Assembly: GCA_964482735.1 (NCBI GenBank)
Contig: CAYZYV010000003.1
Location: 63,097 to 127,096 of the forward strand
Length of the DNA: 64,000 bases
Reading direction: 5' to 3'
From: an uncultured Candidatus Saccharibacteria bacterium
Lineage (GTDB): Bacteria; Patescibacteriota; Minisyncoccia; Phycocordibacterales; UBA9973
Shown here piece by piece: positions 14,206-63,591 of this stretch. The notes beneath the pieces are model-generated. The model had not been told where the DNA came from and searched no databases. It saw nothing but the letters and a program-made list of their open reading frames with translations. The position numbers and the translations under genes are program-made. Numbering within the stretch: the stretch's first letter is position 1; each line of letters begins with the position of its first letter.

Positions 14206-14811
14206 GTGAAAAAAGAATTTCTAAAATCTAATAAAGCATTTACCCAGATAGTAGATTTTGATGAAGTTTCGATTACATCGAAACGTTCTAAAGAACCATC
14301 ATCAAAATTCACTACGGGGTTCACCCTAATTGAACTTCTGGTTGTTATTGCTATTATTGGAATACTTTCTTCGGTAGTTATAGCTTCGTTGGGAAGTGCT
14401 AGAGATAAAGGAAATGACACTAAAAGAAAAGCTGATTTACATCAAATACAAAATGCCCTTGAGTTATATTATAGCGAGTGTGGAACTTTTTTGGTTGCTC
14501 CAAGTTGTAATGGAACACCCTATGGTGGAGATTGGAGTGGAATTTTTGGTGGTTGGTTTAATGTTAATTATGGGACTGGAGCGGTATCTCAAGGATTAAT
14601 CACTTTAGGTTTGGTTGGTGGTGAAATTAAAGAACCATCCAATGTTGCAAATAAAAGATATATGATATCTTTAAATAAGGATCACTATACAATTTGGGCG
14701 ACACTTTCATCCCCGTCTTCACAAGATTTAAGTACTCTTAATAAATGCTACTTCAGTAATTGGGACAATTATGCAGGGGCCAGCTATCAGAATTATTGCC
14801 TTAGTAACTAA
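14206..14811 (+). CDS. Type IV pilin-like protein (prepilin motif G|FTLIELLVVIAIIGIL) with a long N-terminal leader
   Basis: KFTTGFTLIELLVVIAIIGILSSVVIAS. ~38-aa region precedes the cleavage-site Gly. Confidence 0.7.
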   Translation: MKKEFLKSNKAFTQIVDFDEVSITSKRSKEPSSKFTTGFTLIELLVVIAIIGILSSVVIASLGSARDKGNDTKRKADLHQIQNALELYYSECGTFLVAPSCNGTPYGGDWSGIFGGWFNVNYGTGAVSQGLITLGLVGGEIKEPSNVANKRYMISLNKDHYTIWATLSSPSSQDLSTLNKCYFSNWDNYAGASYQNYCLSN

Positions 14812-27898: not shown

Positions 27899-27930
27899 AA
27901 AACCCTCAATACTGAGGGTTTTCATTTTTT
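27899..27930 (+). terminator. Intrinsic terminator
   Basis: aaaaccctcaatactgagggttttcatttttt. Confidence 0.65.
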
Positions 27931-27939
27931 ATGTATAGT

Positions 27940-28163
27940 CGCCTTAGAGACTCGAACGTGAGGAAGCCTCTTCGCTTTAGTTATGCTTTGACATAACCTA
28001 TATGTTTAATAATGAACTGCTTAACAGGCTTAAACAGAGAAGCCCTTCACTTTAGTTATGCTTTGACATAACCTATATACTTGTTATTGAGCCGCTTCAG
28101 AGACTCGAAGGTGAGGAAGCACTTCGCTTTAGTTATGCTTTGACATAACCTATATTTTTTTAC
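27940..28163 (-). repeat. Three tandem ~75-bp direct repeats. Each is a ~37-nt copy of the tRNA-Thr 3' half (T-arm plus acceptor 3' strand) joined to a conserved hairpin gttatg-ctttga-cataac
   Basis: The units begin at 27940, 28013 and 28088. The motif cgctttagttatgctttgacataacctata recurs with period 75/77/72 and continues in register into the intact tRNA. Confidence 0.8.
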
Positions 28164-28238
28164 TGAGCCGCTTCTCAGACTCGAACTGAGGACCTTCGCT
28201 TTACAAAAGCGTTGCTCTACCAACTGAGCTAAAGCGGC
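28164..28238 (-). tRNA. tRNA-Thr (anticodon UGU)
   Basis: Cloverleaf folded by hand: acceptor gccgctt/aagcggc, D-arm agctcagttggtagagc, anticodon loop tt-tgt-aa, T-arm ctcag-ttcgagt-ctgag, discriminator U then CA. Confidence 0.85.
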
Positions 28239-28288
28239 ATAATTTTTAATTCGTTTATATATTAACCGAATTAAAAATTTTTTTCAAG

Positions 28289-33704: not shown

Positions 33705-36700
33705 ATGAATTATATAGAACAAATTCAAAAGTATTATAAAGATGAGAATAGTAGTGAGATGTCATACAGGACACCTTTTCAAAATTTTCTAGAAAGTATT
33801 TTTACGAAAGAGGATAAATATTTTGTTCAACATGACCAAAAAGCGATAGATGGTAATAAGCCAGATTTTATTATTTTGAAAAACAATATTCCTGTTTTAT
33901 ATATAGAAGTTAAAAAAGTAGGAGAAGATTTAGATAAAATAGAGAAGTCAAACCAAGCTGATAGATACTTCGGATATGACAACTTGATAATTAGTGATTA
34001 TATAAATTTTCGATTTTATAGATATGGGAAAAGATATGAAGAGGAAATTTCACTTGGTAAACTAAATAAAAATGAAAAAAGTATAGAAGAAGGGAATAAA
34101 GAAGAAGTACTTATTAAAACTATTCTAGATTTTACCAATTCTCATAAAGAGGAGATTAAATCAGGACGACACTTAGCAGAAATAATGGGTGGTAAAGCTC
34201 TTCGTATAAGGGAGAATATTTTTTACATGCTTTCATCTCAGAGTGATAGATTTGAAGAGTTGAATAAAATTAAAGAAGTTGTTAAGGAAAATCTTATTAG
34301 TAATATTTCTGATGAAGATTTTGCTGATATGTATTCTCAAACCCTCGTTTATGGTCTTTTTGCTTCTAGATATAATGACAAAACTGAAGATACTTTTTCT
34401 AGACATGAAGCGATAGATTTAGCACCAAAGACAAACCCATTTCTTAAAAAGTTTTTTGGACATATTGCAGGCGAATCTTTTCCAGACAGGCTTCGCTTTA
34501 TTGTGGATGAGCTTTGCGAGGTTTTTTCTCATGCGGATGTTCATAAACTTCTTACGGATTTCTATGGAAAAGAGAAGGACAATAAGGATCCAATTATTCA
34601 TTTTTACGAAGATTTCTTGAAAGAATATGACAGTAAAAAGAAAATGGATATGGGCGTTTTCTATACCCCGAAGCCAGTTGTGGATTTTATAATTCGTGGA
34701 GTTGATTATATTTTAAAAAATGATTTTAGCTTATCTGATGGTTTGGTAAGCAAAGAGAAAATAAAATTGGAGAAAAAGATAATAGACGAGAAAACTGGTA
34801 AAGATAAAAAAATTGAAGAAGAATATCACAAAGTCCAAATCTTAGATATAGCCACAGGTACAGGGACTTTCTTAAACGAAACAATTTCTTTTATTTATAA
34901 TTCTTTTAAAGAAAAAGGACAGCTTGGCGGGTGGGATAGTTATGTAAATGAACATTTACTTCCACGACTTCACGGTTTTGAAATAATGATGGCTTCCTAT
35001 ACTATCGCTCACTTGAAGCTTGGAATGACTTTAGAAGATACAGGTATAGATACAGATAAACTAAATAAAAGATTAGGGGTTTATCTTACTAATACCCTTG
35101 AAGAAGCGAAAGATTATTCTAACCAAGGGACACTTTTTGGTTTTATGGACTCTATTGCTGAAGAAGCAAAAAGTGCTTCAAAGATAAAGAAAGAATATCC
35201 AATAATGTGTGTGATAGGCAATCCTCCTTATTCTATTTCTTCACAGAACAAAGGTGAATGGATTTTAAAATTGATAGATGATTATAAAAAAGATTTAAAT
35301 GAAAAGAAAATAAATATAGATGATGATTATATAAAGTTTATTCGTTTTGGACAATATATGGTAGATAAAAATGGAGGAGGAATTCTTGCATATATTTCTA
35401 ATAATTCTTTTATTTCTGGTGTTACTCACAGGAAGATGCGTGAATCTTTATTAAAATCTTTTGATAAAATTTATGTTTTAGATTTACATGGGAATGCTAG
35501 ATTAAAGGAAGTTTGTCCAGATGGAAGCAAAGACCAAAATGTTTTTGATATTATGCAAGGAGTCTCTATAAATATTTTTGTTAAAAGTGAAAATAAAAAA
35601 GAAGGACTTGGAAAAGTTTATCATAGAGATTTATATGGGAATAGAAAAGATAAATTTGAATTTTTATTTAATACAAAATTTGAAGATACAAAATGGAAAG
35701 AATTAGAATACTTTGAGCCTTATTATTTCTTTGTACCCAAAGATTTTGGACTAAAAGATGAATATGATAAAGGATTTAAAATAGATGATTTTTTTATGGA
35801 ATATAATTCTGGAATTCAAACAAAAAGAGATGACTTAGCAATTTCTTTTGAAAAAAAAGAAATGGATATCAAAATTAATGATATTTTAAATTTAAACAGC
35901 CTAGAACTTAAATACAAATACAAATTACCAGAAGATGGGAGAGATTGGAAAATTGATTGGGCAAAAAAGGATTTAAAAATTGACTATCAAATAATAAATA
36001 TTTTATATAGGCCATTTGACATAAGATATGTTGCATACACGAGAAGATCTAAGGGCTTGATTGCATACCCAAGAGAAAAAATAAATCAATATATTGTTAA
36101 TAAAGATAATTTATCATTGTTAACTTGCAGAAATCAAGATTTTAATGATATTTGTTTGATAACAGATAAAATTTCTGATCTTAGGACATATTCTAATCCA
36201 GGGTCGCTTGGAACTGATTATGTTTTTCCTCTTTGTCTTTATAAAAATCAAGAAAAAATTCCAAACTTAAATAAAGAAATTTGGGGGAAAATAAATGAGG
36301 AAGTTGGGGAAACCACACCAGAAAACATTTTGGATTATATTTATGCTGTTTTACATAGCCCCAAATACAGAGAAAAATACAAAGAATTTTTGAAAATTGA
36401 TTTTCCGCGAGTTCCTTATCCAGAAGGCAAAGAAAAATTTTGGAATTTGGTAAAAATTGGCGAGAAATTACGAGGCTTACATTTGATGATAGATAAATCT
36501 ATTAGTGATTTTATCACTACTTATGCTGTGTTGGGTAACAACTTGGTAGATAAAATTTCTTATAAAGATGGAAATGTTTATATAAACAAAGATCAGTATT
36601 TTGGAAATGTTCCCGAAATTGCTTGGAATTTCTACATAGGTGGTTATCAGCCAGCTCAAAAATATCTTAAAGATAGAAAAGGTAGAATTCTCACAAGTGA

Positions 36701-36782
36701 CGAAATAGAACACTATCAGAAAATCATAAAAGTTCTCGTTGAGACGGATAAAATAATGAGGGGAATAGATAAAATAAGATAA
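33705..36782 (+). CDS. MmeI-family Type IIL (IIG) restriction-modification enzyme: PD-ExK endonuclease, gamma-class N6-adenine methyltransferase and target-recognition domain in one polypeptide
   Basis: The N-terminus KPDFIILKNNIPVLYIEVKKVGEDLDKIEKSNQADRYF parallels the MmeI D...EXK nuclease and DLDKA...DYF region. Methyltransferase motif I ILDIATGTGTFL and motif IV VIGNPPYS. 1025 aa. Confidence 0.8.
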   Translation: MNYIEQIQKYYKDENSSEMSYRTPFQNFLESIFTKEDKYFVQHDQKAIDGNKPDFIILKNNIPVLYIEVKKVGEDLDKIEKSNQADRYFGYDNLIISDYINFRFYRYGKRYEEEISLGKLNKNEKSIEEGNKEEVLIKTILDFTNSHKEEIKSGRHLAEIMGGKALRIRENIFYMLSSQSDRFEELNKIKEVVKENLISNISDEDFADMYSQTLVYGLFASRYNDKTEDTFSRHEAIDLAPKTNPFLKKFFGHIAGESFPDRLRFIVDELCEVFSHADVHKLLTDFYGKEKDNKDPIIHFYEDFLKEYDSKKKMDMGVFYTPKPVVDFIIRGVDYILKNDFSLSDGLVSKEKIKLEKKIIDEKTGKDKKIEEEYHKVQILDIATGTGTFLNETISFIYNSFKEKGQLGGWDSYVNEHLLPRLHGFEIMMASYTIAHLKLGMTLEDTGIDTDKLNKRLGVYLTNTLEEAKDYSNQGTLFGFMDSIAEEAKSASKIKKEYPIMCVIGNPPYSISSQNKGEWILKLIDDYKKDLNEKKINIDDDYIKFIRFGQYMVDKNGGGILAYISNNSFISGVTHRKMRESLLKSFDKIYVLDLHGNARLKEVCPDGSKDQNVFDIMQGVSINIFVKSENKKEGLGKVYHRDLYGNRKDKFEFLFNTKFEDTKWKELEYFEPYYFFVPKDFGLKDEYDKGFKIDDFFMEYNSGIQTKRDDLAISFEKKEMDIKINDILNLNSLELKYKYKLPEDGRDWKIDWAKKDLKIDYQIINILYRPFDIRYVAYTRRSKGLIAYPREKINQYIVNKDNLSLLTCRNQDFNDICLITDKISDLRTYSNPGSLGTDYVFPLCLYKNQEKIPNLNKEIWGKINEEVGETTPENILDYIYAVLHSPKYREKYKEFLKIDFPRVPYPEGKEKFWNLVKIGEKLRGLHLMIDKSISDFITTYAVLGNNLVDKISYKDGNVYINKDQYFGNVPEIAWNFYIGGYQPAQKYLKDRKGRILTSDEIEHYQKIIKVLVETDKIMRGIDKIR

Positions 36783-36785
36783 TTT

Positions 36786-37358
36786 ATGGAAGAAAATAAA
36801 CAAAAAATTGTATATGTGTTTATTGATGCTTCAAACCTTTGGCAAGCACAAAAAGTAAAAGGTAGATTATTTGATTTTGAAAAACTTAAATTTTATTTAA
36901 AGAAAAATTTTAATGCATTAGAATTTCAAGTATTTTATTACACAGCTTATCCCAAAGAAGGAACTAGGGAAAACAGTCAAGATGGAAAACATAAATTTTT
37001 TACTTATCTAAAAAAGGGTTTAGGTTTTATTGTTAGAAAAAAAGAATTAAAGAGAATTGTAGAACATAACGAGCAGGGAGACATAATACAAGAAAAAGGA
37101 AATATGGATGTTGAGATGACAATAGATGCAATCCATTTTTGTAAAAAATACGATATTGCTGTTTTGTTTACGGGAGATTCTGACTTTTTAGCATTGGTGA
37201 ATTATATAAGAAATGGAAGTAAGAAAGTTTTTATATTTTCGTCTAAAAACAATGTATCTCAAGAGCTGAGGACTGGAGGAGATGGATATTTTGATGTATT
37301 AGATATAAAAGAAGATATATGGGGGAGAGAACTAAAACATAGAGATGATAAATCTTAA
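36786..37358 (+). CDS. NYN-domain (LabA-like, PIN-fold) nuclease
   Basis: VYVFIDASNLW...AVLFTGDSDFLALVNYIR...KVFIFS matches the NYN/PF01936 pattern. Starts 4 nt after the RM gene stop. Confidence 0.75.
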   Translation: MEENKQKIVYVFIDASNLWQAQKVKGRLFDFEKLKFYLKKNFNALEFQVFYYTAYPKEGTRENSQDGKHKFFTYLKKGLGFIVRKKELKRIVEHNEQGDIIQEKGNMDVEMTIDAIHFCKKYDIAVLFTGDSDFLALVNYIRNGSKKVFIFSSKNNVSQELRTGGDGYFDVLDIKEDIWGRELKHRDDKS

Positions 37359-38759: not shown

Positions 38760-39023
38760 AAAAAGATCGTACACACAGCACGAGGCGTACGATCCTGGGG
38801 AACTTGGGTGGGCCTGCGCTTATAACTGGCCCTATTTTGTAAAACATACAGTAGTTTTGTAAAAAGGAAAACCTCAAGGAAATAAAGAACATTCAGCACC
38901 TATAACTACTTAAGAACAAATTCAAAACTACTGTAGTTTGTTGATATAATTATAGCAAATTAAGTTTAAAAAGTCAAATAGAAAATGAAAGCAAAAATTA
39001 CCCTTATATGCTAAGATATTATT

Positions 39024-39080
39024 AGTTTTATGTCCAAAAACATTTTCAAACTTAAGAGTTCATACTCTCCGGCTGGAGAC
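39024..39080 (+). repeat. Duplicated copy of the uvrB 5' end (RBS region plus the first 17 codons)
   Basis: tagttttATGTCCAAAAACATTTTCAAACTTAAGAGTTCATACTCTCCGGCTGGAGAC differs from 39150-39207 by two substitutions, tat/tac and gat/gac, both synonymous. Confidence 0.85.
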
Positions 39081-39156
39081 CCCAGAAGTAAAACAAAAAA
39101 TCGGATGCATTTTTTGTTTACTACGGGGCGGGAAGTGGTAGTATAGTTTTATCTTT
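39081..39156 (+). mobile_element. Miniature imperfect-palindrome element (copy 1), immediately upstream of the uvrB ATG
   Basis: CCCCAGAAGTAAAACAAAAAAT-cggatgc-ATTTTTTGTTTACTACGGGG (20-bp stem) followed by the tail cgggaagtggtagtatagttttatcttt. Confidence 0.6.
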
Positions 39157-41316
39157 ATGTCCAAAAACATTTTCAAACTTAAGAGTTCATATTCTCCGGC
39201 TGGAGATCAGCCGAAAGCTATTTCAGAGTTACTCAGTGGTCTAAATAGGGGGATGGAAAAGCAAACTTTATTAGGGGCAACAGGAACAGGTAAGACTTTT
39301 ACCGTAGCAAATGTAATAGAAAAATGGAATAAACCAGTTTTGGTCATTGCACACAACAAAACTCTTGCAGCCCAACTCGCTCAAGAATTTAAAGAATTTT
39401 TTCCAGATGCAGCAGTTCACTATTTCGTTTCCTATTATGATTATTATCAACCGGAGGCGTATATGCCAATATCAGATACATATATAGAGAAAGATGCCCA
39501 GATTAATAAAGAGATAGATCGTTTAAGACATGCCACAACCCAATCTCTCTTAACAAGAAAAGATGTGATTATTGTGGCTTCTGTGTCTTGTATTTACGGG
39601 CTTGGTTCTCCTTCGGAATATGAGAAGGTAAATTTAAGATTAGAAAAAGGAATGACTTTGGATCGATTAGGATTAATGCGAAAGCTTATTGAGATTCATT
39701 TTGAAAGAACTAATGCAGATTTAAATCCAGGTTCTTTTAGATCTATTGGTTCAAAAGTAGAGATAATGCCTGTTTCAGATAATTTTATTTTTCAAGTTGA
39801 ATTTTCTGGTAATAAAATTTCAAAAATATCAAAAGTGGACCCTGTTTCTTCAAAAGTTTTGGATGAACCAGAAAACATTTTTGTCTTTCCAGCAAAGCAT
39901 TTTATAACAGAGAAAAAACAAGTTGAGATTGCTATTAAAGACATTAAAAAAGAGTTAAATGATCAGGTTAAAAAATTTGAAAAAAAAGGAAAACTTTTAG
40001 AGGCTGAAAGAATAAAAAGGCGTACTAACTACGACTTGGCAATGATTAGAGAAGTAGGTTATTGTAATGGAATTGAAAACTATTCTCGGCATTTGTCTGG
40101 CAAGAAAGAAGGAGAACCTCCTGAGACACTCCTTTCCTATTTCAAAGAAGATTTTTTAACTGTAATAGATGAATCACATGTTAGTTTACCTCAGCTTCAA
40201 GGTATGTATAGGGGTGACGCTTCGAGAAAAAATACCTTGGTGGAATATGGTTTTAGGTTACCATCTGCTAAAGATAATCGGCCTCTAAAATATCCTGAAT
40301 TTGAAGAAAGGGTTGGCCAGGTAATATATGTATCTGCTACTCCAAGCGACGAAGAAAAGAAATCGAGTGGTCAAATAGTAGAGCAAATCATTCGCCCAAC
40401 AGGCCTTGTGGATCCAGAGGTTATCGTAAGACCTGTGAGTGCAGGTAAAGATTTTTCAGCCAAATCATCAGTAGATGATCGCTCGACTCATTTGAGTACA
40501 AATGAGTCGAGGGGACAAATACAAGATTTTATCTTAGAGGCAGAAGAAACAATTAAAAAAGGTTATCGTGTTTTAGCAACTACTCTTACTAAAAAAATGG
40601 CAGAAGACCTGTCTAACTATTTAAAAGAAAAAGGATTAAAAGCCGAATATCTACACAGTGAGATTAAAACAATAGAGAGGATTCAAGTCTTAACCTCATT
40701 TAGAAAAGGTGATATAGACATTTTGGTTGGAGTAAACCTGCTTAGAGAAGGTTTGGATTTGCCAGAAGTGGCATTGATAGGGATATTAGATGCAGATAAA
40801 GAAGGTTTTTTAAGATCGGAAACTTCTTTAATTCAAACCATAGGACGAGCAGCAAGAAATGCCGAGGGGCGAGTGATTCTGTATGCTGATGAAATGACGA
40901 AGTCGCTTAGTAAGGCAATAGAAGAAACAAATCGTCGTAGATCTATCCAGTTGGACTATAATAAGAAAAATAACATTACCCCAAAAACTATAATTAAAAA
41001 TATAAAAGATATCACAGACGATCTCGAAAATAAACACGAAAAAGTTGTAAACGCAGAACTTGGTTTTGATTTAGAGTTATTTAAAAAAGCTTTTGATAAA
41101 AGCAAGTCAAACCTAGATAAAACTGAAACTGAAAGCTTGAGAAATTTAAAAATTTCTGACGAAGAAAGAAGTCTAAAAGTCTTTGAGAAGATTATTAAGA
41201 TAAAAGAGAAGGAAATGAATCGAGCTGTAAAAAATTTAGATTTTGAAACAGCAGCTATTTTGAGAGATGAAATAATCAGTCTAAGGGGTTTATTAGGAGA
41301 AAAAAACAATAAATGA
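39157..41316 (+). CDS. uvrB: Excinuclease ABC subunit B
   Basis: LLGATGTGKTFTVANVIE helicase motif I, beta-hairpin region, C-terminal UVR domain. Confidence 0.9.
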   Translation: MSKNIFKLKSSYSPAGDQPKAISELLSGLNRGMEKQTLLGATGTGKTFTVANVIEKWNKPVLVIAHNKTLAAQLAQEFKEFFPDAAVHYFVSYYDYYQPEAYMPISDTYIEKDAQINKEIDRLRHATTQSLLTRKDVIIVASVSCIYGLGSPSEYEKVNLRLEKGMTLDRLGLMRKLIEIHFERTNADLNPGSFRSIGSKVEIMPVSDNFIFQVEFSGNKISKISKVDPVSSKVLDEPENIFVFPAKHFITEKKQVEIAIKDIKKELNDQVKKFEKKGKLLEAERIKRRTNYDLAMIREVGYCNGIENYSRHLSGKKEGEPPETLLSYFKEDFLTVIDESHVSLPQLQGMYRGDASRKNTLVEYGFRLPSAKDNRPLKYPEFEERVGQVIYVSATPSDEEKKSSGQIVEQIIRPTGLVDPEVIVRPVSAGKDFSAKSSVDDRSTHLSTNESRGQIQDFILEAEETIKKGYRVLATTLTKKMAEDLSNYLKEKGLKAEYLHSEIKTIERIQVLTSFRKGDIDILVGVNLLREGLDLPEVALIGILDADKEGFLRSETSLIQTIGRAARNAEGRVILYADEMTKSLSKAIEETNRRRSIQLDYNKKNNITPKTIIKNIKDITDDLENKHEKVVNAELGFDLELFKKAFDKSKSNLDKTETESLRNLKISDEERSLKVFEKIIKIKEKEMNRAVKNLDFETAAILRDEIISLRGLLGEKNNK

Positions 41317-48984: not shown

Positions 48985-49125
48985 CGCCACTCGCAAAATT
49001 CCACGACCCTGGCTCGTGATTTTGCTTGCTAGCAAAATTATCACTCCGCCTTCCACAGCTAAAAAACAGCATGCAGATGCTGTTTTTCTTAACGCTTGTG
49101 GACCCTACAGGAGTCTCTCCTTCGA
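48985..49125 (-). repeat. Partial direct copy (unit 1) of the tRNA-Ala 3' end, its trailer, a terminator hairpin and ~100 nt of flank
   Basis: tttcttaacgcttgtggaccctacagga is identical at 49095-49122 and 49353-49380. The flanks ccttccacagctaaaa / ctttccacaagctaaaa are similar. The hairpin sequence differs but stays self-complementary. Confidence 0.75.
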
Positions 49126-49366
49126 CTAAAACCTTTTCGTCAAAAAGTTTTGTCTAGGCACCAGCTCGTCTGTTTTTTGAGACAGTTATGGAATGCTTTG
49201 CATGCTAAAACCATGTGTGTCACAAGTCACTAAATATTTTGCTCCAGGTATTCGCAAAATATGTAAGTGCTCGCGACCCCAGCTCGGCAATTTTTCTGCT
49301 GAAAAATTATGCCTGTGCTTTCCACAAGCTAAAAGCCTCCAGCAGTGGAGGCTTTCTTAACGCTTG

Positions 49367-49439
49367 TGGACCCTACAGGACTCGAACCTGCCACCCCCTC
49401 ATTGCAAATGAGGTGCTCTACCAGATGAGCTAAGGGCCC
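49367..49439 (-). tRNA. tRNA-Ala (anticodon UGC) with G3:U70
   Basis: gggccct/agggtcc acceptor with the G3-U70 identity pair, anticodon stem cctca/tgagg, loop tt-tgc-aa, T-loop ttcgagt. Confidence 0.85.
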
Positions 49440-49610
49440 ATATTCTTTTTTAATCTACTTTGCCTTTAGTTTATACTGTTGCTTCCATGAAGCGCTACAG
49501 ATGAGCTAAGGGCCTATAAAACATAATCTTGAAACACTATTATATTAACTTATTTTAAAAAAATTGCAAGTAAAATTAACTATTTTCCTTTAAAATGATA
49601 CAATGTTGCT

Positions 49611-50978
49611 ATGCCATTAAACAAAGGAAATAAAATACAAACCGTTAAGTATTCTCCTCCTCCTCCAAATCTTCCAATGCTTGGGAAGGTAGATCCTAGC
49701 CAAGCTGTTTTTATTGGAAGAACAAATTATGTAGCAGCCTTGGAAGAAAAGAGGTTTGTTTTTGGTATTAATCAAAACGATAGAAGACGTCATGTTTATA
49801 TTGTAGGTAAATCTGGGGTAGGTAAATCAAAATTAGAAGAAGTAATGATTCGTCAGGATATTGCTTATGGCAGAGGTGTATGTGTTATCGATCCGTACGG
49901 AGAATTAGTAGAAGAGATATTAAATTTTATTCCTAAAAATAGAGTAAATGATGTTTGTATCTTTAATCCTGAAGATGTTAATTTTCCTGCATCCTTTAAT
50001 CCATTTTCAAGGGTAGAACCGACATTCAGACACCAATTTACTCAAAGTATCGTAGAAATTTTACAGAAACAATTTGGAAATGATTGGAGTCCTAGAATAG
50101 AGCATGTGATTCGTTTTTCAGTATTAGCTTTGCTTGATTGTGAAAATTCAAACATGCGAGGGATGATTCGTATTTTGATTGATAAAAAATATCGAGAAAA
50201 GGTTATAGATAATATAAAAGACGACATGGTTCGTCATTTCTGGAAAGAAGAGTTTGAAGAGTGGTCTAAGAAGTTTGATTCTGAAGTAATAATTCCTATC
50301 GTGAACAAGTTGTGGCAATTTCTTTCTAACCCGATGCTTACCAACATATTTGGTCAAAAGGAAAACAAAATAGATTTTGAAAAAATAATGAATAATAAAA
50401 AAATTATTCTTGTTAACTTAGCTAAGGATAAAATCGGAGATGAAAATGCTTCATTCTTGGGTGCCTTGTTTATGACAAAAATTAGACAAGCAGGTATGTC
50501 TCGAGCAAAGTTGAATCCTTCAGAAAAGAATGATTTTTATCTTTATATTGATGAATTTAATAATATAATAACTGATGGTTTTGAAAACATTTTATCTGAG
50601 TCTAGAAAATATGGAATTAATTTAACTATTGCCCATCAATATATCGGTCAATTGTCTCAAAAAATAGAACAAGCAGTTTTAGGTAATATAGGAACTATAA
50701 TTTTGTTTAGGGTTGGGGGAGACGATGCTACCAAGTTGCGATCTGAATTCGCTCCTATTTTTGATGTTAAAGATATGATTAATTTAGGAACAGGAGAGTT
50801 TTACATTAAGATGATAATAAATGGTGAAAGTTATGACCCATTTTCATCAGAAACCTTAGAAGTTTTACCGACACCACACACATCTTTTAGAGAAGAAGTT
50901 TTAGGTTCTTCTAGAAGATTCTATGCTACCACAGAAGAAAACGCTTCTAAAATTATGGCTGAAGATGAATCTTCTTAA
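49611..50978 (+). CDS. Soluble FtsK/HerA-superfamily P-loop ATPase resembling T4SS coupling-protein (VirD4/TraG/TrwB) DNA-binding ATPase domains; paralogue 1
   Basis: Walker A VYIVGKSGVGKS, Walker B LYIDEFNNI, arginine finger and sensor SESRKYGINLTIAHQY. No TM segments. Confidence 0.55.
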   Translation: MPLNKGNKIQTVKYSPPPPNLPMLGKVDPSQAVFIGRTNYVAALEEKRFVFGINQNDRRRHVYIVGKSGVGKSKLEEVMIRQDIAYGRGVCVIDPYGELVEEILNFIPKNRVNDVCIFNPEDVNFPASFNPFSRVEPTFRHQFTQSIVEILQKQFGNDWSPRIEHVIRFSVLALLDCENSNMRGMIRILIDKKYREKVIDNIKDDMVRHFWKEEFEEWSKKFDSEVIIPIVNKLWQFLSNPMLTNIFGQKENKIDFEKIMNNKKIILVNLAKDKIGDENASFLGALFMTKIRQAGMSRAKLNPSEKNDFYLYIDEFNNIITDGFENILSESRKYGINLTIAHQYIGQLSQKIEQAVLGNIGTIILFRVGGDDATKLRSEFAPIFDVKDMINLGTGEFYIKMIINGESYDPFSSETLEVLPTPHTSFREEVLGSSRRFYATTEENASKIMAEDESS

Positions 50979-51026
50979 AATAAAGCTTTTTAGTTTGTTT
51001 TAAATAAGGTATAATAAAAGTAATTT

Positions 51027-53111
51027 ATGGATAACGAAATTCCTAATAATAAAGATATCACTTATTTTGCGAAGACTAATTTTCGTAATACAAATACTGT
51101 TTTTGGAATAAAAAGAAAAGATCGTCGTCAGCACATGTATGTCCTCGGTAAATCTGGTACCGGTAAATCTGTTTTGTTGCATAATTTAATAACTCAAAAC
51201 ATTAAAAATGGAGAGGGCGTTTGTGTAATAGATCCTCACGGAGAACTTGCTGAAGAAATACTAGAATTGATACCAGAAAATCGCATAAAAGATGTTATTT
51301 ATTTTAACCCGGCAGATCCTGATTTTCATATAGGTTTTAACGTTCTACAGATTGATGACCCTAAGCTTAAGCACTTAGTTGCTTCTGGTATTATGGGTAT
51401 TTTTACTAAAATTTGGGCAAATGCTTGGAGCTCTCGTATGGAGTACATTTTAAACAATGCTATTTTGGCCCTCTTAGATACGCCAGGAACTACACTTTTG
51501 GGGATACCTCGTCTTTTAGTCGATAAAGAGTATCGTCAAATGATTATAGGCAATCTAAAAGATCCAATTGTTAAATCTTTTTGGTTGCACGAATACGAGG
51601 AATGGAGAGACCAATTTAGAAATGAAGCGATTGCCCCTATTCAAAATAAAGTTGGACAATTTTTGTCTACTTCTATCATTAGAAATGTGGTTGGTCAATC
51701 AAAATCAACAATTGATATCTTCAAAATAATGAACGAAGGTAAAATCTTTATTGTTAATGTTTCAAAAGGAAGAATAGGGGAAGATAACTCAGCTTTGCTT
51801 GGAGGTATGATTATTACCAAGCTTCAATTGGCAGCTATGGAGAGAGTTCGTATTCCTGAAAACGAGAGAAGAGATTTCTATCTTTATGTTGATGAATTTC
51901 AGAACTTTGCTACTGAATCTTTTGCCAACATTCTTTCTGAAGCGAGAAAGTATCGTTTAAATTTAATTATTGCTCACCAATATATAGCTCAAATAGCAAA
52001 CTCTGAAGGTTCCAAAGTTTCTGATGCAGTTTTTGGTAACGTTGGAACAATGATTATTTTTAGAGTAGGAGCAGAAGATGCCCAGTTTTTGGAAAAAGAA
52101 TTTGAACCAGAATTTACAGCTCAAGACTTGGTTAGCTTACCAAATTACAATATCTATTTGAAATTAATGGTAGATGGTGTAACTAGTCGTCCTTTTTCAG
52201 CAATAACTTTACCACCAATGGTTTCTGTTGATCCTGACAATGATACTAAAGAAAGAATCATAGAGTCCTCAAGGGTCTTGTATGCACGATCACGAACCGA
52301 AGTAGAATCAGAGATAACCAAATGGAGTACCACTCTTCAGACAAACGAAGGTGAAGCTAAATATAAAGTAGAGTGTACAAACTGTAAAAAGCAAACTACT
52401 GTTCCTTTTGAACCAAAGGAAGGAAAACCCGTTTACTGCAAGGAGTGTTTAATAAAAATAAAAAGCGGGGAGTTAAAACCAGAAAAAGGATTTTTTGTAC
52501 CAAAGACCAACAATCAAGAAAATAAAGAAGCTGTAGCTTCTCTCGCTTCTTTAGGTATAGAATTCAAATCAGATATTAATCATAATAACAGAGATAATTT
52601 TTCTAGAAGACAAGAACAAAAAACAAACCCAGATCACAATCAACCAAAAAATAGTCATTCTTTTAATCCAAAAGAAAATCCAAGAAATAATAATGATTTT
52701 GAAAGAAGAAAAAGTTCTGGGCCATCACCACTTCTTCGTGGTTTGTTGGAAAAAATAAAATCAGGACAAGTTTCAGAGATAAAAGAAGAAAAAATAGATC
52801 TAGTAGAAGAGAAAGTAAAAACACCTGAACCTGTTTCTTTAGCTACTCTTAAATCAGATAATCCTAGCGATAAAAACACAATGATTTCAACTAAAGAAAT
52901 TTCAGATGCTCATTTATCGACCTTGAAAGACGCTTTAAGTAAAATCACAGACAAGCAAAACTCATTTGATAACTCAAAAAAAGAGCCAATTCAAAATAAT
53001 ACTGAAGTAAAGGCCGAAGATAATCAAAACGACACCTCTGCCCCTTCGTGGCAAAACAAAAAAACTGTCAAAGAAGTCCCCGAAGAAGTATTGAGAAAAG
53101 TTCTAGAATAA
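51027..53111 (+). CDS. Paralogue 2 of the same ATPase family, with a C-terminal CxxC...CxxC zinc ribbon and a ~230-aa low-complexity (N/K/E-rich) tail
   Basis: MYVLGKSGTGKS, LYVDEFQNF, SEARKYRLNLIIAHQY; ECTNCKKQ...CKEC. Confidence 0.55.
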   Translation: MDNEIPNNKDITYFAKTNFRNTNTVFGIKRKDRRQHMYVLGKSGTGKSVLLHNLITQNIKNGEGVCVIDPHGELAEEILELIPENRIKDVIYFNPADPDFHIGFNVLQIDDPKLKHLVASGIMGIFTKIWANAWSSRMEYILNNAILALLDTPGTTLLGIPRLLVDKEYRQMIIGNLKDPIVKSFWLHEYEEWRDQFRNEAIAPIQNKVGQFLSTSIIRNVVGQSKSTIDIFKIMNEGKIFIVNVSKGRIGEDNSALLGGMIITKLQLAAMERVRIPENERRDFYLYVDEFQNFATESFANILSEARKYRLNLIIAHQYIAQIANSEGSKVSDAVFGNVGTMIIFRVGAEDAQFLEKEFEPEFTAQDLVSLPNYNIYLKLMVDGVTSRPFSAITLPPMVSVDPDNDTKERIIESSRVLYARSRTEVESEITKWSTTLQTNEGEAKYKVECTNCKKQTTVPFEPKEGKPVYCKECLIKIKSGELKPEKGFFVPKTNNQENKEAVASLASLGIEFKSDINHNNRDNFSRRQEQKTNPDHNQPKNSHSFNPKENPRNNNDFERRKSSGPSPLLRGLLEKIKSGQVSEIKEEKIDLVEEKVKTPEPVSLATLKSDNPSDKNTMISTKEISDAHLSTLKDALSKITDKQNSFDNSKKEPIQNNTEVKAEDNQNDTSAPSWQNKKTVKEVPEEVLRKVLE

Positions 53112-60581: not shown

Positions 60582-60682
60582 GATATTAATACTATCTTAA
60601 CTTATACTTTTAATCAAATAATAATATTGGTGCATTTTTAAACAAATTCTGATAATATAACGATTATGAGTTTATTAATCGG

Positions 60683-60791
60683 CCCCAGAAGTAAAAATTT
60701 AAATCGTTTGCACTTAAATTTTACTACGGGGTAAAAGGTGATATTTATTAAGTTTTTTATCAAATTAGATATTTAGTAGACAATTAATGTT
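60683..60791 (+). mobile_element. Miniature palindrome element (copy 2) immediately upstream of the ychF ATG, preceded by a 19-nt duplicate of the ychF start (60664-60682)
   Basis: CCCCAGAAGTAAAAATTTAA-atcgtttgcac-TTAAATTTTACTACGGGG, then the tail taaaaggtgatatttattaagttttttat... The upstream ttATGAGTTTATtAATCGG matches ttATGAGTTTATcAATCGG at 60790-60808. Confidence 0.6.
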
Positions 60792-61904
60792 ATGAGTTTA
60801 TCAATCGGCATTGTAGGGCTTCCAAATGTTGGGAAAAGCACATTATTTAATGCTTTAACAAAAAAGGGGGTTCCTTCAGAAAATTATCCATTTTGTACAA
60901 TTGACCCATCCGTAGGGATTGTGGCTGTTCCTGATGATCGTCTTTGGAAATTGTCTGATTTTTCCAAGTCTGCAAAAACTATCCCAGCGGCAATAGAATT
61001 CGTAGACATTGCCGGTCTAGTTAAAGGTGCTTCAAAAGGGGAAGGGTTGGGAAATAAGTTTCTCGCAAACATCCGTGAAGTTGATGCTATATTGGAGATG
61101 GTAAGAATATTCCCAGTAAAGACAGAGAGGACAAATGAAATAATTCACGTTTATGGAAACGTGGATCCACTTCGAGATATTGAAGTTATAAACTTAGAAC
61201 TAATTCTTGCTGACTTAGAAACGGTGGTAAAAAGAAGAACTAATTTATCTCATGACTTAAAAAGAGGAGTGAAAGATGCCGTGATAGAGGATAAAGCTCT
61301 TGTAAAATTAGAAATTGCTTTTGAAAAAGCTCAAATGGCAAATACTGTTTCTTTTGATGAAAAAGAGATAGAGAAAATAAAAATGTTGAATCTTTTAACA
61401 ATGAAGCCATTTATCTATGGATTGAATAAAAGAGGTGAAGGTGGAAATTTAGATGAAACTGATCCAGAGACTTTCAAAATGGTGACTGACTATATTAAAA
61501 GTACTGGGTCTACTTATGTAATTGTTGATGCAAAAATTGAAGATGAATTAAAAGATTTTGAAGGAGAGGAAAAAGAAATACTTCGAAAAGAAATGGGGGG
61601 AGATGATGATGGTATTAATAGCCTTATTAAAGAAGGGTACAATCTCCTTGGACTAGAGACTTATTTTACGACAGGAGAAGATGAGACACGTGCTTGGACT
61701 ATCAAGAAGGGAAGCACAGCTCCTGTGGCAGGAATGGCTATACATACAGATTTTAGAGATAAATTTATAAGGGCTGAAGTAGTTAATTGGCAAGAATTAT
61801 TAAACGCTGGAAGCTATGCCGAAGCTCGGGCCAAAGGAAAAATCAGAACAGAAGGTAAAGAATATATCGTTAAGGATGGGGATGTAATAGAATTTAAAAT
61901 ATAA
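60792..61904 (+). CDS. ychF: Ribosome-binding ATPase YchF (Obg family, TGS domain)
   Basis: GIVGLPNVGKSTLFNALT, NYPFCTIDP; C-terminal TGS ...YIVKDGDVIEFKI. Confidence 0.9.
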   Translation: MSLSIGIVGLPNVGKSTLFNALTKKGVPSENYPFCTIDPSVGIVAVPDDRLWKLSDFSKSAKTIPAAIEFVDIAGLVKGASKGEGLGNKFLANIREVDAILEMVRIFPVKTERTNEIIHVYGNVDPLRDIEVINLELILADLETVVKRRTNLSHDLKRGVKDAVIEDKALVKLEIAFEKAQMANTVSFDEKEIEKIKMLNLLTMKPFIYGLNKRGEGGNLDETDPETFKMVTDYIKSTGSTYVIVDAKIEDELKDFEGEEKEILRKEMGGDDDGINSLIKEGYNLLGLETYFTTGEDETRAWTIKKGSTAPVAGMAIHTDFRDKFIRAEVVNWQELLNAGSYAEARAKGKIRTEGKEYIVKDGDVIEFKI

Positions 61905-61992
61905 CTTTATTTAGTCGTAATAAAATAAACAATCACTTCTCGTTCCGTAGTAAACTTTAAAAGTATTTTGTTTTTTAAAGTTTTACTACTGG
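61905..61992 (-). mobile_element. Miniature palindrome element (copy 3, inverted orientation) just after the ychF stop. A diverged duplicate of the last 12 ychF codons follows at 61994-62032
   Basis: Minus strand: CCAGTAGTAAAACTTTAAAA-aacaaaatac-TTTTAAAGTTTACTACGG, then the tail aacgagaagtgattgtttattttat. The duplicate gttaaagatggagacgtaatagaattcaaaatctaa differs from the real end gttaaggatggggatgtaatagaatttaaaatataa at 5 positions, all synonymous. Confidence 0.6.
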
Positions 61993-62033
61993 GATTGTTA
62001 AAGATGGAGACGTAATAGAATTCAAAATCTAAT

Positions 62034-62438
62034 ATGAGCAAAGGAGAAGAAGGGGTAATATTTGTATTATTCAAAGACAACAAAATATTACTGCAACAAA
62101 GAGATAAAAATTGTAAAAAATTTCCATTCAAATGGTGTATTCCTGGTGGAGGAAGAGAAGAAAATGAAAGTTATGAAAAAACTCTTTTGAGAGAAATTAA
62201 AGAAGAGTTTGATATGGATTTGAATGTAGAACAATGTGAATATATAACAGATTATCCAAATAATGAAATTAGAGTGTATTTGTGTAAAATAAACCCAGAC
62301 CAAATACCAACTTTGAATGAGGGAATGGCAATGAAATGGGGGTCCATTCAAGAAATAAAAAATATGGAATTAGGATTTAATCAAGATAAACTAATTTTAT
62401 TATTAGAAAGTTATTTAGAAAAAACCAATGATTACTAA
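62034..62438 (+). CDS. Nudix hydrolase
   Basis: Nudix box GGGREENESYEKTLLREIKEEFDMD. Confidence 0.7.
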   Translation: MSKGEEGVIFVLFKDNKILLQQRDKNCKKFPFKWCIPGGGREENESYEKTLLREIKEEFDMDLNVEQCEYITDYPNNEIRVYLCKINPDQIPTLNEGMAMKWGSIQEIKNMELGFNQDKLILLLESYLEKTNDY

Positions 62439-63042: not shown

Positions 63043-63591
63043 TTATTTTTGTTTACTATCTTTAGTTTTTTTGAGATGATTTAAGTGCTGTTGTTTTAAA
63101 TCGATTACTTCTTCTATTAGTTTGCCGAGGGTGTCTTCTATTCTAGCTAGCATTAGGTCATCTTTTTTCTCATCCTCATCTTCTTCTTGGATGTCTTCAA
63201 CATCCTCCTGGATATCATCAACGTCTTTTTGAATATCATCAACATCTTTTTGAATCTCATCGACATCACCCTGAATCTCATCAACGTCTTTTTGAATCTC
63301 ATCAACGTCCTCTTGAATTTCTCCAACATCTTTTGCAACCAAATGAAGTTTTCTTGCCTGACGATTAACACTCATTTGTATAAAAATAGATAGGTAAATG
63401 GCCTCGAGGGAAACTATAGTGGTAAGTACCAAAAGAATATCATCGAGGTCTATCCCGTAAAAATACAAAGCAAAAGCAAATATAAAAAGTGCTGTATGTA
63501 CTAAAAGCGAGTTGGTAGATCCAACCCATCTTGTTGCCTTCGTTGATATTTTTTCTATGGTGTCCCCAGATTTTCTTCTTAATTCCTCCAT
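63043..63591 (-). CDS. DUF1003-like two-TM membrane protein with a C-terminal acidic heptad-repeat region (DVDEIQK x7)
   Basis: LVHTALFIFAFALYFYGIDLDDILLVLTTIVSLEAIYLSIFIQMSVNRQARK (DUF1003-like), then 7 x DVDEIQK-type heptads. Confidence 0.5.
   Translation of the reverse strand: MEELRRKSGDTIEKISTKATRWVGSTNSLLVHTALFIFAFALYFYGIDLDDILLVLTTIVSLEAIYLSIFIQMSVNRQARKLHLVAKDVGEIQEDVDEIQKDVDEIQGDVDEIQKDVDDIQKDVDDIQEDVEDIQEEDEDEKKDDLMLARIEDTLGKLIEEVIDLKQQHLNHLKKTKDSKQK
63190..63336. repeat. Seven tandem 21-bp repeats (coding heptads of the 63043..63591 gene)
   Basis: gatatcatcaacgtctttttg / aatatcatcaacatctttttg / aatctcatcgacatcaccctg ... with period 21. Confidence 0.85.

Follow-up and report, generated by a model that had tools for sequence, protein, structure and literature searches.

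Why does the ychF gene of an uncultured Candidatus Saccharibacteria bacterium end twice? In a 64,000-nt stretch of its DNA (contig CAYZYV010000003.1, positions 63,097 to 127,096; hereafter the window), the intact gene is followed, beyond a hairpin, by a second and untranslated copy of its last codons that spells the same peptide differently. A reading made from the letters alone (the sequence-only reading) had proposed that the two ends diverged while both were translated, and that an intervening element had been acquired horizontally together with a replacement gene end. Here we describe the family of hairpin elements to which this locus belongs and document its geometry and length rule, its presence and absence among relatives, its nested and tandem copies, and its codon signature. 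Our preferred explanation, to which we assign a probability of roughly 60%, is that the 128 bp at ychF are one insertion unit of a small non-autonomous hairpin family of Patescibacteria that spreads between alleles together with a replacement gene end.

Results

The two ychF ends differ only by silent changes

The YchF Pfam domains are present in the ychF homologues, which are 99-77% identical, the closest ones coming from Patescibacteria metagenomes. The inner, functional end of the gene reads ATCGTTAAGGATGGGGATGTAATAGAATTTAAAATATAA and the outer, displaced end ATTGTTAAAGATGGAGACGTAATAGAATTCAAAATCTAA; both encode IVKDGDVIEFKI followed by a stop codon, and their starts are 128 nt apart (Table 1). 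The sequence-only reading had counted five differences in 36 nt, all at wobble positions and all leaving the peptide unchanged. Direct reading and an independent repeat finder bear out this count, except that the preceding isoleucine codon (ATC/ATT) also belongs to the repeat, which therefore has six differences in 39 nt (G/A, G/A, T/C, T/C, A/C and C/T), every one of them at a third position. When six random substitutions were simulated, the probability that all were synonymous was 2e-5 under a uniform model and 6.5e-5 under a transition- and AT-biased one, which makes chance an unlikely source of the split. For a pair in which one copy decays neutrally and the other takes only synonymous changes, the probability of an all-silent outcome was P = 0.0013. 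Nor is AT-biased decay the cause, because in half of the differences (3/6) it is the downstream copy that has C at the wobble position.

Between the two ends lie an arm and a hairpin. The spacer adds up to 40 nt and closes with AATCACTTCTCGTT, the reverse complement of the conserved core of the family (AACGAGAAGTGATT); inner end and arm together measure 79 nt. The hairpin has a DNA fold z of -4.1 and is matched by the covariance model of the family at 65.2 bits (E = 5e-15), its outer arms being invariant and its inner stem covarying among the 36 copies compared. The outer stop codon lies 1 nt ahead of the ATG of a downstream NUDIX-like open reading frame (ORF; 62034..62438).

A family of hairpin elements at the ends of housekeeping genes

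Copies in other genomes and metagenomes were collected by two scans; loci outside the window carry L labels. The genome scan covered one genome per species with a hairpin-only pattern that left out the core, and the metagenome scan used a pattern of right arm plus core. The former gave 39 loci, whose named records belong almost entirely to Patescibacteria (Nomurabacteria, Paceibacterota, Saccharibacteria, Moranbacteria and Kazan), and the latter 48 more. Beyond the window, some 45 copies came to light, nearly every one in a Patescibacteria metagenome genome and at one end, 5' or 3', of a conserved gene.

The window copies are of class 1, which is defined by a 45-49-nt hairpin with the loop CGAATGC and by repeats of a gene end on its flanks. 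Its outer arms of 13 nt are invariant (CCCCAGAAGTAAA / TTTACTACGGGG), its loop is conserved and its inner stem covaries: in 36 copies, 91% of the stem is paired with 71 double-change cells, a level reached in 0 of 500 shuffles. The conserved core, GGCGAGAAGT, stands beside the CTACGG side of the hairpin. After the core, the pattern TGnTAnAAT is retained in copies at 5' ends and degraded in those at 3' ends, suggesting that the element may provide a promoter where one is needed. Targets that recur across lineages are the 5' end of uvrB, both ends of ychF, and the 5' ends of tsaD (MKILAIETSCD) and an atpG-like gene (MAGTKE); further ones are the 5' ends of genes beginning MPPFN and MKVISWN and a 3' end, ...VATTIIEKRK-stop. 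Class 2 hairpins (among L002-L039, e.g. L017 5316-5379, L008 and L020) are 64-66 nt long, with the same outer arms and no flanking repeats. They always adjoin the ATG of housekeeping genes (mreB-, serS-, clpB-, ddl- and fmt-like), with TATAAT ~13 nt upstream, and are ~85-90% alike across genes and across metagenome-assembled genomes of Saccharibacteria and Nomurabacteria.

A covariance model built from the 36 copies found exactly three strong matches in the window (65-83 bits), at the 5' end of uvrB and at the 5' and 3' ends of ychF. The only other window scores above ~20 bits came from the reverse strands of these three and from generic AT-rich terminator hairpins. Three copies in 64 kb compare with few per contig elsewhere. 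Their start-to-start spacings are 127, 126 and 128 nt in this order, and their repeats are about 64, 20 and 39 nt. At the ychF start, where the hairpin is oriented opposite to that of the 3' copy, the outer fragment repeats 60790-60809 with one non-synonymous difference and is identical to the real start of a relative (L046); the inner junction is 80 nt from the hairpin end. At uvrB, the outer fragment holds 50 coding nt with one synonymous difference (TAC/TAT) from 39157-39206, and its displaced reading frame enters the hairpin and stops at 39152-39154, just before the real ATG at 39157. Here too, 80 nt separate the hairpin end from the inner junction. Positions 38848-38950, which lie upstream of the displaced uvrB start, hold a long-range inverted repeat (ACAGTAGTTTTG ... 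CAAAACTACTGT, with a 67-nt loop) and then TTGATATAAT, which together look like a candidate for the hairpin and promoter that uvrB had originally. Scans for consensus promoters and terminators near the copies were uninformative.

No Rfam family matched, whether the whole window was scanned at gathering scores or the surroundings of ychF at E up to 5, and a literature search on such elements in Patescibacteria (the candidate phyla radiation) or on hairpin-linked duplication of gene ends returned nothing relevant. A phage or viral origin was rejected: three pattern matches in viral contigs lack the hairpin, one more lacks its left arm, and phage records gave no blastn match. A conserved peptide running through the hairpin (PRSK...FTTG) was rejected as well, its frame differing between copies (L024, L027 and L035). 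The hairpin elements are a previously undescribed Patescibacteria family at the ends of housekeeping genes.

A constant distance from hairpin to gene junction

On the element strand, the order of parts is constant: displaced gene fragment, hairpin from CCCAG to CTACGG, core (GGCGAGAAGT-like), filler and intact gene. The outer fragment always adjoins the CCCAG end. The distance from the CTACGG end to the inner junction was 77-81 nt (mode 79) in 29 of the 32 class-1 copies with a detectable repeat, although repeats measured 13-73 nt and hairpins 27-49 nt. Spacings of 108, 116 and 126 nt went with hairpins of 27, 36 and 45 nt. Because shorter hairpins give shorter spacing, it is the non-hairpin part that is constant and not the whole unit. 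In other sub-families the constant is different (32 and 48 nt).

The filler proved unlike the DNA outside the outer repeat in nine of nine cases, even where the coding repeats were 100% identical (L046, L062 and L035). A long target-site duplication of 60-80 nt is rejected on this ground. In most copies the repeats end within 0-6 nt of a start or stop codon. Upstream regions of ychF cannot be aligned among relatives, and the first 17 coding nt are nearly invariant; that repeats stop at the gene boundary would be expected if donor and recipient are homologous in coding sequence only. Long, near-identical repeats that extend into non-coding DNA mark the copies that look youngest (L069, 55/55; L055, ~73 nt). 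No motif is shared by the junctions. In the native ychF upstream regions of the window, L040, L043, L044 and L048, we noted TGnTAAnAT ~7-12 nt before the ATG and no Shine-Dalgarno sequence, suggesting that ychF mRNAs may be leaderless or nearly so in these bacteria.

Filled and empty sites among relatives

Relatives with 94-87% protein identity have an empty ychF site, with a single end and no hairpin (L043, L044/45, L048/49 and L101/102). The element occupies the same junction, between AT(T/C/A) and GTTAAAG, in L040-42, L046/47, L050, L061, L078 and L079, and L040 bears a third, older partial ychF end further downstream. Copies lacking the outer fragment were found in L080/L085, L006 and L052. 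At the 5' end of tsaD in L084 (4809-5042, oriented minus), a 17-nt fragment, a first hairpin, a 35-nt fragment, a variant second hairpin and the real gene follow one another, an arrangement that indicates probable repeated insertion at the currently functional start. The whole 126-nt unit is arrayed in tandem at the ychF 3' end of L078 (1350-1580) and L079 (2535-2757), which may reflect real amplification or assembly cycles.

The window was then compared with L046, whose YchF protein is 99% identical. The gene body had diverged by 3%, the last 180 nt by 9%, the inner end by 14% and the spacer by 45%, as against 4% for the hairpin and 8% for the outer copy. This jump probably marks an exchanged block bounded by the hairpin. 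The longer YchF homologues (376-412 aa) do not arise by in-frame read-through of a 5' element.

Three further observations concern ychF in these relatives. L100 (3200-3405) and L040 (3590-3650) carry a different small repeat at the 3' end. Here the end ATTGAATTCAA(A/G)ATTTAA precedes an inverted copy of itself, a short ATCCT...AGGAT hairpin and a further partial end, and the series recurs several times. The ychF frame of L100 is cut at the junction used by the hairpin family (…EYIV-SY-stop). Upstream of ychF in L040 (2210-2371), an ATG remnant, a right arm (AATTTTACTACC) and a variant core (TAAAACC) resemble a decayed 5' element; the ychF 5' insertion may accordingly be older than its absence in most relatives suggests.

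The two copies diverged as working gene ends

We asked whether the codon pattern of the ychF pair extends to the family. In 24 distinct repeat pairs from several genes and genomes, differences fell at codon positions 1, 2 and 3 in the numbers 7, 8 and 39 (binomial p = 6e-9), and 31 codon differences were synonymous versus 13 non-synonymous. Under neutrality 20% of them should be silent, or 33% where just one copy is constrained; the excess over the latter share has p = 4e-7. A pair in L068 resembles that of the window, 6/6 of its differences being silent. Serine codons switch between the outer and inner copies from one codon family to the other (AGC/TCC and AGT/TCC in L083; AGT/TCA in L027), and the uvrB copies of L022 (MSNKVFKLKSEYKPDGD and MPKPVFKLKSDYVPAGD) are two different, equally uvrB-like N-termini. 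Neither the AGY/TCN switches of serine nor the paired N-termini of L022 can arise from a local duplicate that decays. The conclusion that the copies belonged to different lineages and diverged there as functioning gene ends holds for the window pair and for the family.

The sequence-only reading had also called for an alignment of both ychF ends to those of relatives. Among 16 ends, the two versions were not closest to the same relatives: the inner end has its fewest differences (5 each) from L046, L078 and the empty-site L043, and the outer end its fewest (4) from the outer end of L079. Together with the empty and filled sites and with the block exchanged between the window and L046, this fits the horizontal acquisition of an element with a replacement gene end, as that reading had proposed. 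The intervening element is, however, only ~128 bp long and non-autonomous, and not a gene-carrying island. Either copy could be the immigrant, and crossovers inside the repeat would make both chimeric.

Other features of the window

The coordinates of the element copies are collected in Table 1. A 77-nt hairpin at 14243-14319 scored only 11.7 bits with the covariance model (E = 0.8), and its membership in the family is doubtful. It lies in frame within the leader of a prepilin-like ORF, with a short K-(A/G)-F-T codon repeat on both flanks, and in this it may be likened to a Rickettsia palindromic element, which is likewise in frame and flanked by a short repeat.

Two tRNA genes of the window have duplicated ends. 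On the minus strand (27930-28240), three units of 75-77 nt come after tRNA-Thr (28165-28238), each made of a small hairpin (TATAGGTTATGTCAAAGCATAACT) and a copy of the tRNA 3' half from the anticodon loop onwards. They share with the ychF element the logic of a hairpin plus a regenerated end, and differ from it in hairpin and unit length. For tRNA-Ala (49366-49439, minus), a 3' part is duplicated at 49085-49126 and 49353-49394 (spacing 268), and a 5' part at 49422-49442 and 49498-49518 (spacing 76); two VirD4/TraG-like ORFs follow at 49611-53111. The window also encodes a Type ISP restriction-modification enzyme (1025 aa) and then an NYN-domain protein at 33705-37358, and, downstream of Sua5, a DUF948-like gene (minus-strand ORF 63043..63591) with seven tandem 21-nt coding repeats at 63161-63349.

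Table 1. Hairpin-element copies and associated gene ends in the window
Feature	Position	Strand	Basis and remarks
ychF, intact 370-aa gene	60792..61904	+	ORF list; inverted hairpin-element copies flank both sides
Inner (functional) ychF 3' end, IVKDGDVIEFKI-stop	61866..61904	+	Direct reading, repeat finder (family D8)
Arm of ychF 3' copy: 26 nt filler, then AATCACTTCTCGTT	61905..61944	+	Alignment with other copies, distance table
Hairpin of ychF 3' copy, 49 nt, CCCAGTAGTAAAAC...GTTTACTACGG	61945..61993	- (family orientation)	Fold, covariance model
Outer (displaced, untranslated) ychF 3' end	61994..62032	+	Direct reading, repeat finder (family D8)
Outer displaced ychF 5' end (TTATGAGTTTATTAATCGGC)	60664..60683	+	Repeat finder (D16)
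Hairpin of ychF 5' copy	60684..60731	+	Fold, model match 73.6 bits
Arm of ychF 5' copy: variant core, filler, real ychF start	60732..60809	+	Direct reading, distance table
Outer displaced uvrB 5' end	39030..39079	+	Repeat finder (D3)
Hairpin of uvrB copy	39080..39128	+	Fold z = -3.9, model match 83.4 bits
Arm of uvrB copy: core CGGGAAGTGGTAGTATAG (extended -10-like), then real uvrB start	39129..39206	+	Reading, distance table
Possible distant relative (doubtful), 77-nt hairpin, ends CCCAGATAGTAGA...TTCACTACGGGG	14243..14319	+	Fold z = -6.7

Discussion

In the explanation that we favour, a unit would consist of hairpin, core and arm, with a non-hairpin part of ~79 nt whose distal end copies 13-73 nt from the beginning or the close of a housekeeping gene. 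The unit would sit directly after the matching resident sequence. The gene would then be rebuilt from the element-borne copy, and the resident end would be left as an untranslated fragment against the CCCAG side; insertions at 5' ends would in addition give the gene an extended -10 promoter. Spread between diverged lineages would take place at orthologous sites by recombination on conserved coding homology, anchored over a long stretch of gene body and joined over a short one in the fragment, which is plausible for bacteria that are believed to depend on DNA uptake. Because such spread uses coding homology between lineages, the two copies in one genome would be alleles of different lineages with mainly synonymous differences. 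From these patterns we infer which way the transfer went, a spread by recombination and a copying step that measures length.

The copying step can be put formally. The mobile unit would be the hairpin plus a measured ~79 nt of whatever adjoins its CTACGG side, pasted after a sequence that matches the distal end. A unit of this kind would always regenerate its target and would survive only where the matching segment extends to the end of the gene. It would displace the resident end beyond the hairpin, give a repeat as long as the homologous part at constant spacing, allow nested and tandem copies, and pair alleles of different lineages. A bolder version, which we put forward tentatively and with the odds against it, is a new mode of mobility, in which a hairpin-binding machine copies the hairpin and ~79 nt and pastes them into a naive allele, and a gene-less 126-nt element homes between alleles guided by homology. 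Insertion would then always be seamless for the target gene, and the element would 'learn' each site from its own flank.

Several observations weigh against the explanation that we favour. No copy has a linked recombinase, transposase or reverse transcriptase, and a scan of ten less obvious ORFs of the window yielded none either. We know of no mechanism that measures ~79 nt from a hairpin, which leaves copy-and-paste as a purely formal model. The number of copies per genome looks low, with one strict-pattern match in the single long contig (0.69 Mb) that was hit in the RAAC4_OD1_1 assembly; this counts against the explanation because a self-propagating element might be expected to be commoner. 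The inner ychF ends are more alike across lineages than the outer ones (4.6 vs 8.2 differences per 39 nt), a likeness that does not name the immigrant copy because decay of the outer copies gives the same result, and the tsaD outer copies of L083 and L094 look, by eye, more alike than the inner ones. Conservation of the core among the metagenome loci is partly by construction, the core having been in the search pattern, whereas the genome scan was free of it. Finally, all sequences are metagenome assemblies, and the tandem arrays of L078 and L079, standing at contig ends, are possibly assembly cycles.

The main rival, which we consider unlikely, is a miniature integrative element. Here the hairpin would be the core site of a tyrosine recombinase (Xer- or integrase-like) or of an integron-like one, a circle of ~126 bp with a gene fragment would integrate site-specifically at the junction, and the repeats would be attL and attR. 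Gene-end islands and prophages, which use tRNA and tmRNA 3' ends or the dusA 5' end (there with a new promoter), restore the gene with an element-borne end. As in such islands, the resident terminus is displaced as a direct repeat from the junction, or crossover, to the gene boundary, the gene is restored by the element copy, the copies may differ by host and a promoter is supplied at 5' ends. Serial copies at one site, the duplicated ends of tRNA-Thr and tRNA-Ala in the same window and short hairpin variants (L040 and L050) that resemble 13-5-13 core sites also speak for integration, and a fixed circle size would yield a constant unit length. Yet what is constant is the non-hairpin part, units measuring 108, 116 or 126 nt, and it is hard to see how circles of the same size acquire different gene fragments. 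Double-stranded circles of 126 bp are, moreover, severely strained. The junctions have no common motif. Islands are kilobases long with an integrase of their own, whereas the hairpin element is gene-less, has ~126 bp with the hairpin at one edge and follows the 79-nt rule; its 126 bp leave no room for a recombinase gene, and no integrase or other recombinase gene adjoins a copy in the window or in the ychF loci examined. An integron cassette with attC was rejected, the ends being CCCAG/CTACGG and not R''/R' boxes (RYYYAAC ... GTTRRRY) and no IntI being seen; GTTAAAG at the ychF junction fits 6 of 7 positions of GTTRRRY but is missing at other junctions.

In fungal mitochondria, mobile ORFs and elements with homing endonucleases also bring a replacement C-terminus, as in Allomyces atp6, whose native end survives downstream as a pseudogene. 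The hybrid gene with a foreign end, the native fragment left behind and the transfer between lineages at orthologous sites are common to both systems. Unlike the hairpin element, to which no enzyme is linked, mobile ORFs carry an endonuclease ORF, which accounts for their homing, and they have neither hairpin nor length rule.

Very improbable, and largely refuted, is transposition in the manner of a MITE (a miniature inverted-repeat transposable element) or a repetitive extragenic palindromic (REP) sequence with a very long target-site duplication, or else a local tandem duplication, followed by decay and without transfer between lineages. Direct repeats do surround a palindromic element with terminal inverted arms (CCCCAGAAGTAAA / TTTACTACGGGG), the youngest-looking repeats include non-coding DNA (L069 and L055), and a fixed stagger would give a fixed spacing. 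But repeats of 13-73 nt occur at constant spacing, the filler is not copied from the outer flank (L046, L062 and L035), and codon-position bias and serine family switches are incompatible with the decay of a local duplicate. MITEs make fixed target duplications of 2-10 bp, and we know of no transposon whose target duplications exceed about 30 bp; the flanking repeats of the hairpin element are variable, and only the total is fixed. Correia MITEs carry outward promoters and Rickettsia palindromic elements insert in frame. The hairpin element is likewise non-autonomous and palindromic, can supply promoters and is tolerated in or beside coding regions, but MITEs do not carry copies of the target gene, and here core and arm lie outside the right terminal arm. 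An autonomous partner with the same arms was not seen in ~0.7 Mb of compared loci, a comparison that is noisy, as the arms resemble each other, and not genome-wide.

REP sequences and REPINs are GTAG-tagged palindromes of 20-40 nt, GC-rich and present in hundreds of copies, that are mobilised by the REP-associated tyrosine transposases (PMC3733652). The hairpin element shares with them an imperfect palindrome with GTAG/CTAC at the foot of the stem, a variable but compensating stem and a place near or overlapping gene ends, occasionally inside ORFs (PMC3733652). All copies have CCGTAG...CTACGG, at a size of 45-49 nt that is above the usual REP range. The text of the REP survey contains neither the stem 'duplicat' nor the term 'target site' (PMC3733652). 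No gene for a REP-associated transposase was seen with the hairpin element, though no search aimed at one was made.

Slightly less probable still is selection of the downstream copy for a function of its own, either as the translation-initiation context of the NUDIX-like ORF or as a guide or antisense RNA against unrecoded ychF alleles, joined to the hairpin in an RNA-guided homing or cleave-and-rescue arrangement. The outer stop is 1 nt from the NUDIX ATG, the hairpin always adjoins the outer fragment as a scaffold would its guide, and the functional copy differs by silent changes only, like a recoded immune allele. A role in initiation, however, would not keep codon phase. Many pairs are identical and hence not immune, and no consistent antisense relation exists, the fragments being sense at 3' ends and sense on the same element strand at 5' ends. 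A CRISPR-like or omega-RNA guide unit was rejected on similar grounds: fragments of 13-73 nt are unlike guides of fixed length, Rfam gave no match, and no nuclease gene is linked. IS200/IS605 elements have hairpin-defined ends, TnpA and TnpB genes, an omega RNA with a guide of ~16 nt and no direct repeat of the target. There, too, a defined flanking length recognises the allelic empty site and restores the element in it; the direct repeat sets the hairpin element apart, and neither TnpA/TnpB nor a ~16-nt guide was seen with it. A diversity-generating retroelement was also rejected, as the differences are not adenine-specific and the ten window ORFs scanned include no reverse transcriptase. An assembly or binning artefact, in which chimeric contigs join the ychF ends of two strains, would suit data made up wholly of metagenome assemblies with tandem arrays at contig ends, but it is highly improbable, since the same hairpin, spacing and architecture recur in dozens of independent assemblies from different projects and L046 and L047, from two projects, match the 5' structure of the window almost base for base.

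The hairpin element thus has the logic of surrogate-end islands and mobile ORFs in the body of a GTAG-tagged REP or MITE, and lacks what defines each of them. If a hairpin unit that spreads with a replacement gene end is the right explanation, the strict 79-nt rule would point to an undescribed length-measuring enzyme or complex acting on a DNA hairpin, and a homology-guided, seamless insertion device of 126 nt would be of interest to genome engineers. Copies at 5' ends would re-wire promoters, and the fragments could be mistaken by gene callers for short ORFs or N-terminal extensions. The codon signature would be direct sequence evidence of frequent recombination between diverged uncultured lineages at housekeeping genes. 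The element would be the smallest known to carry a replacement gene end, and the island strategy of target restoration would exist at MITE scale in the reduced genomes of Patescibacteria.

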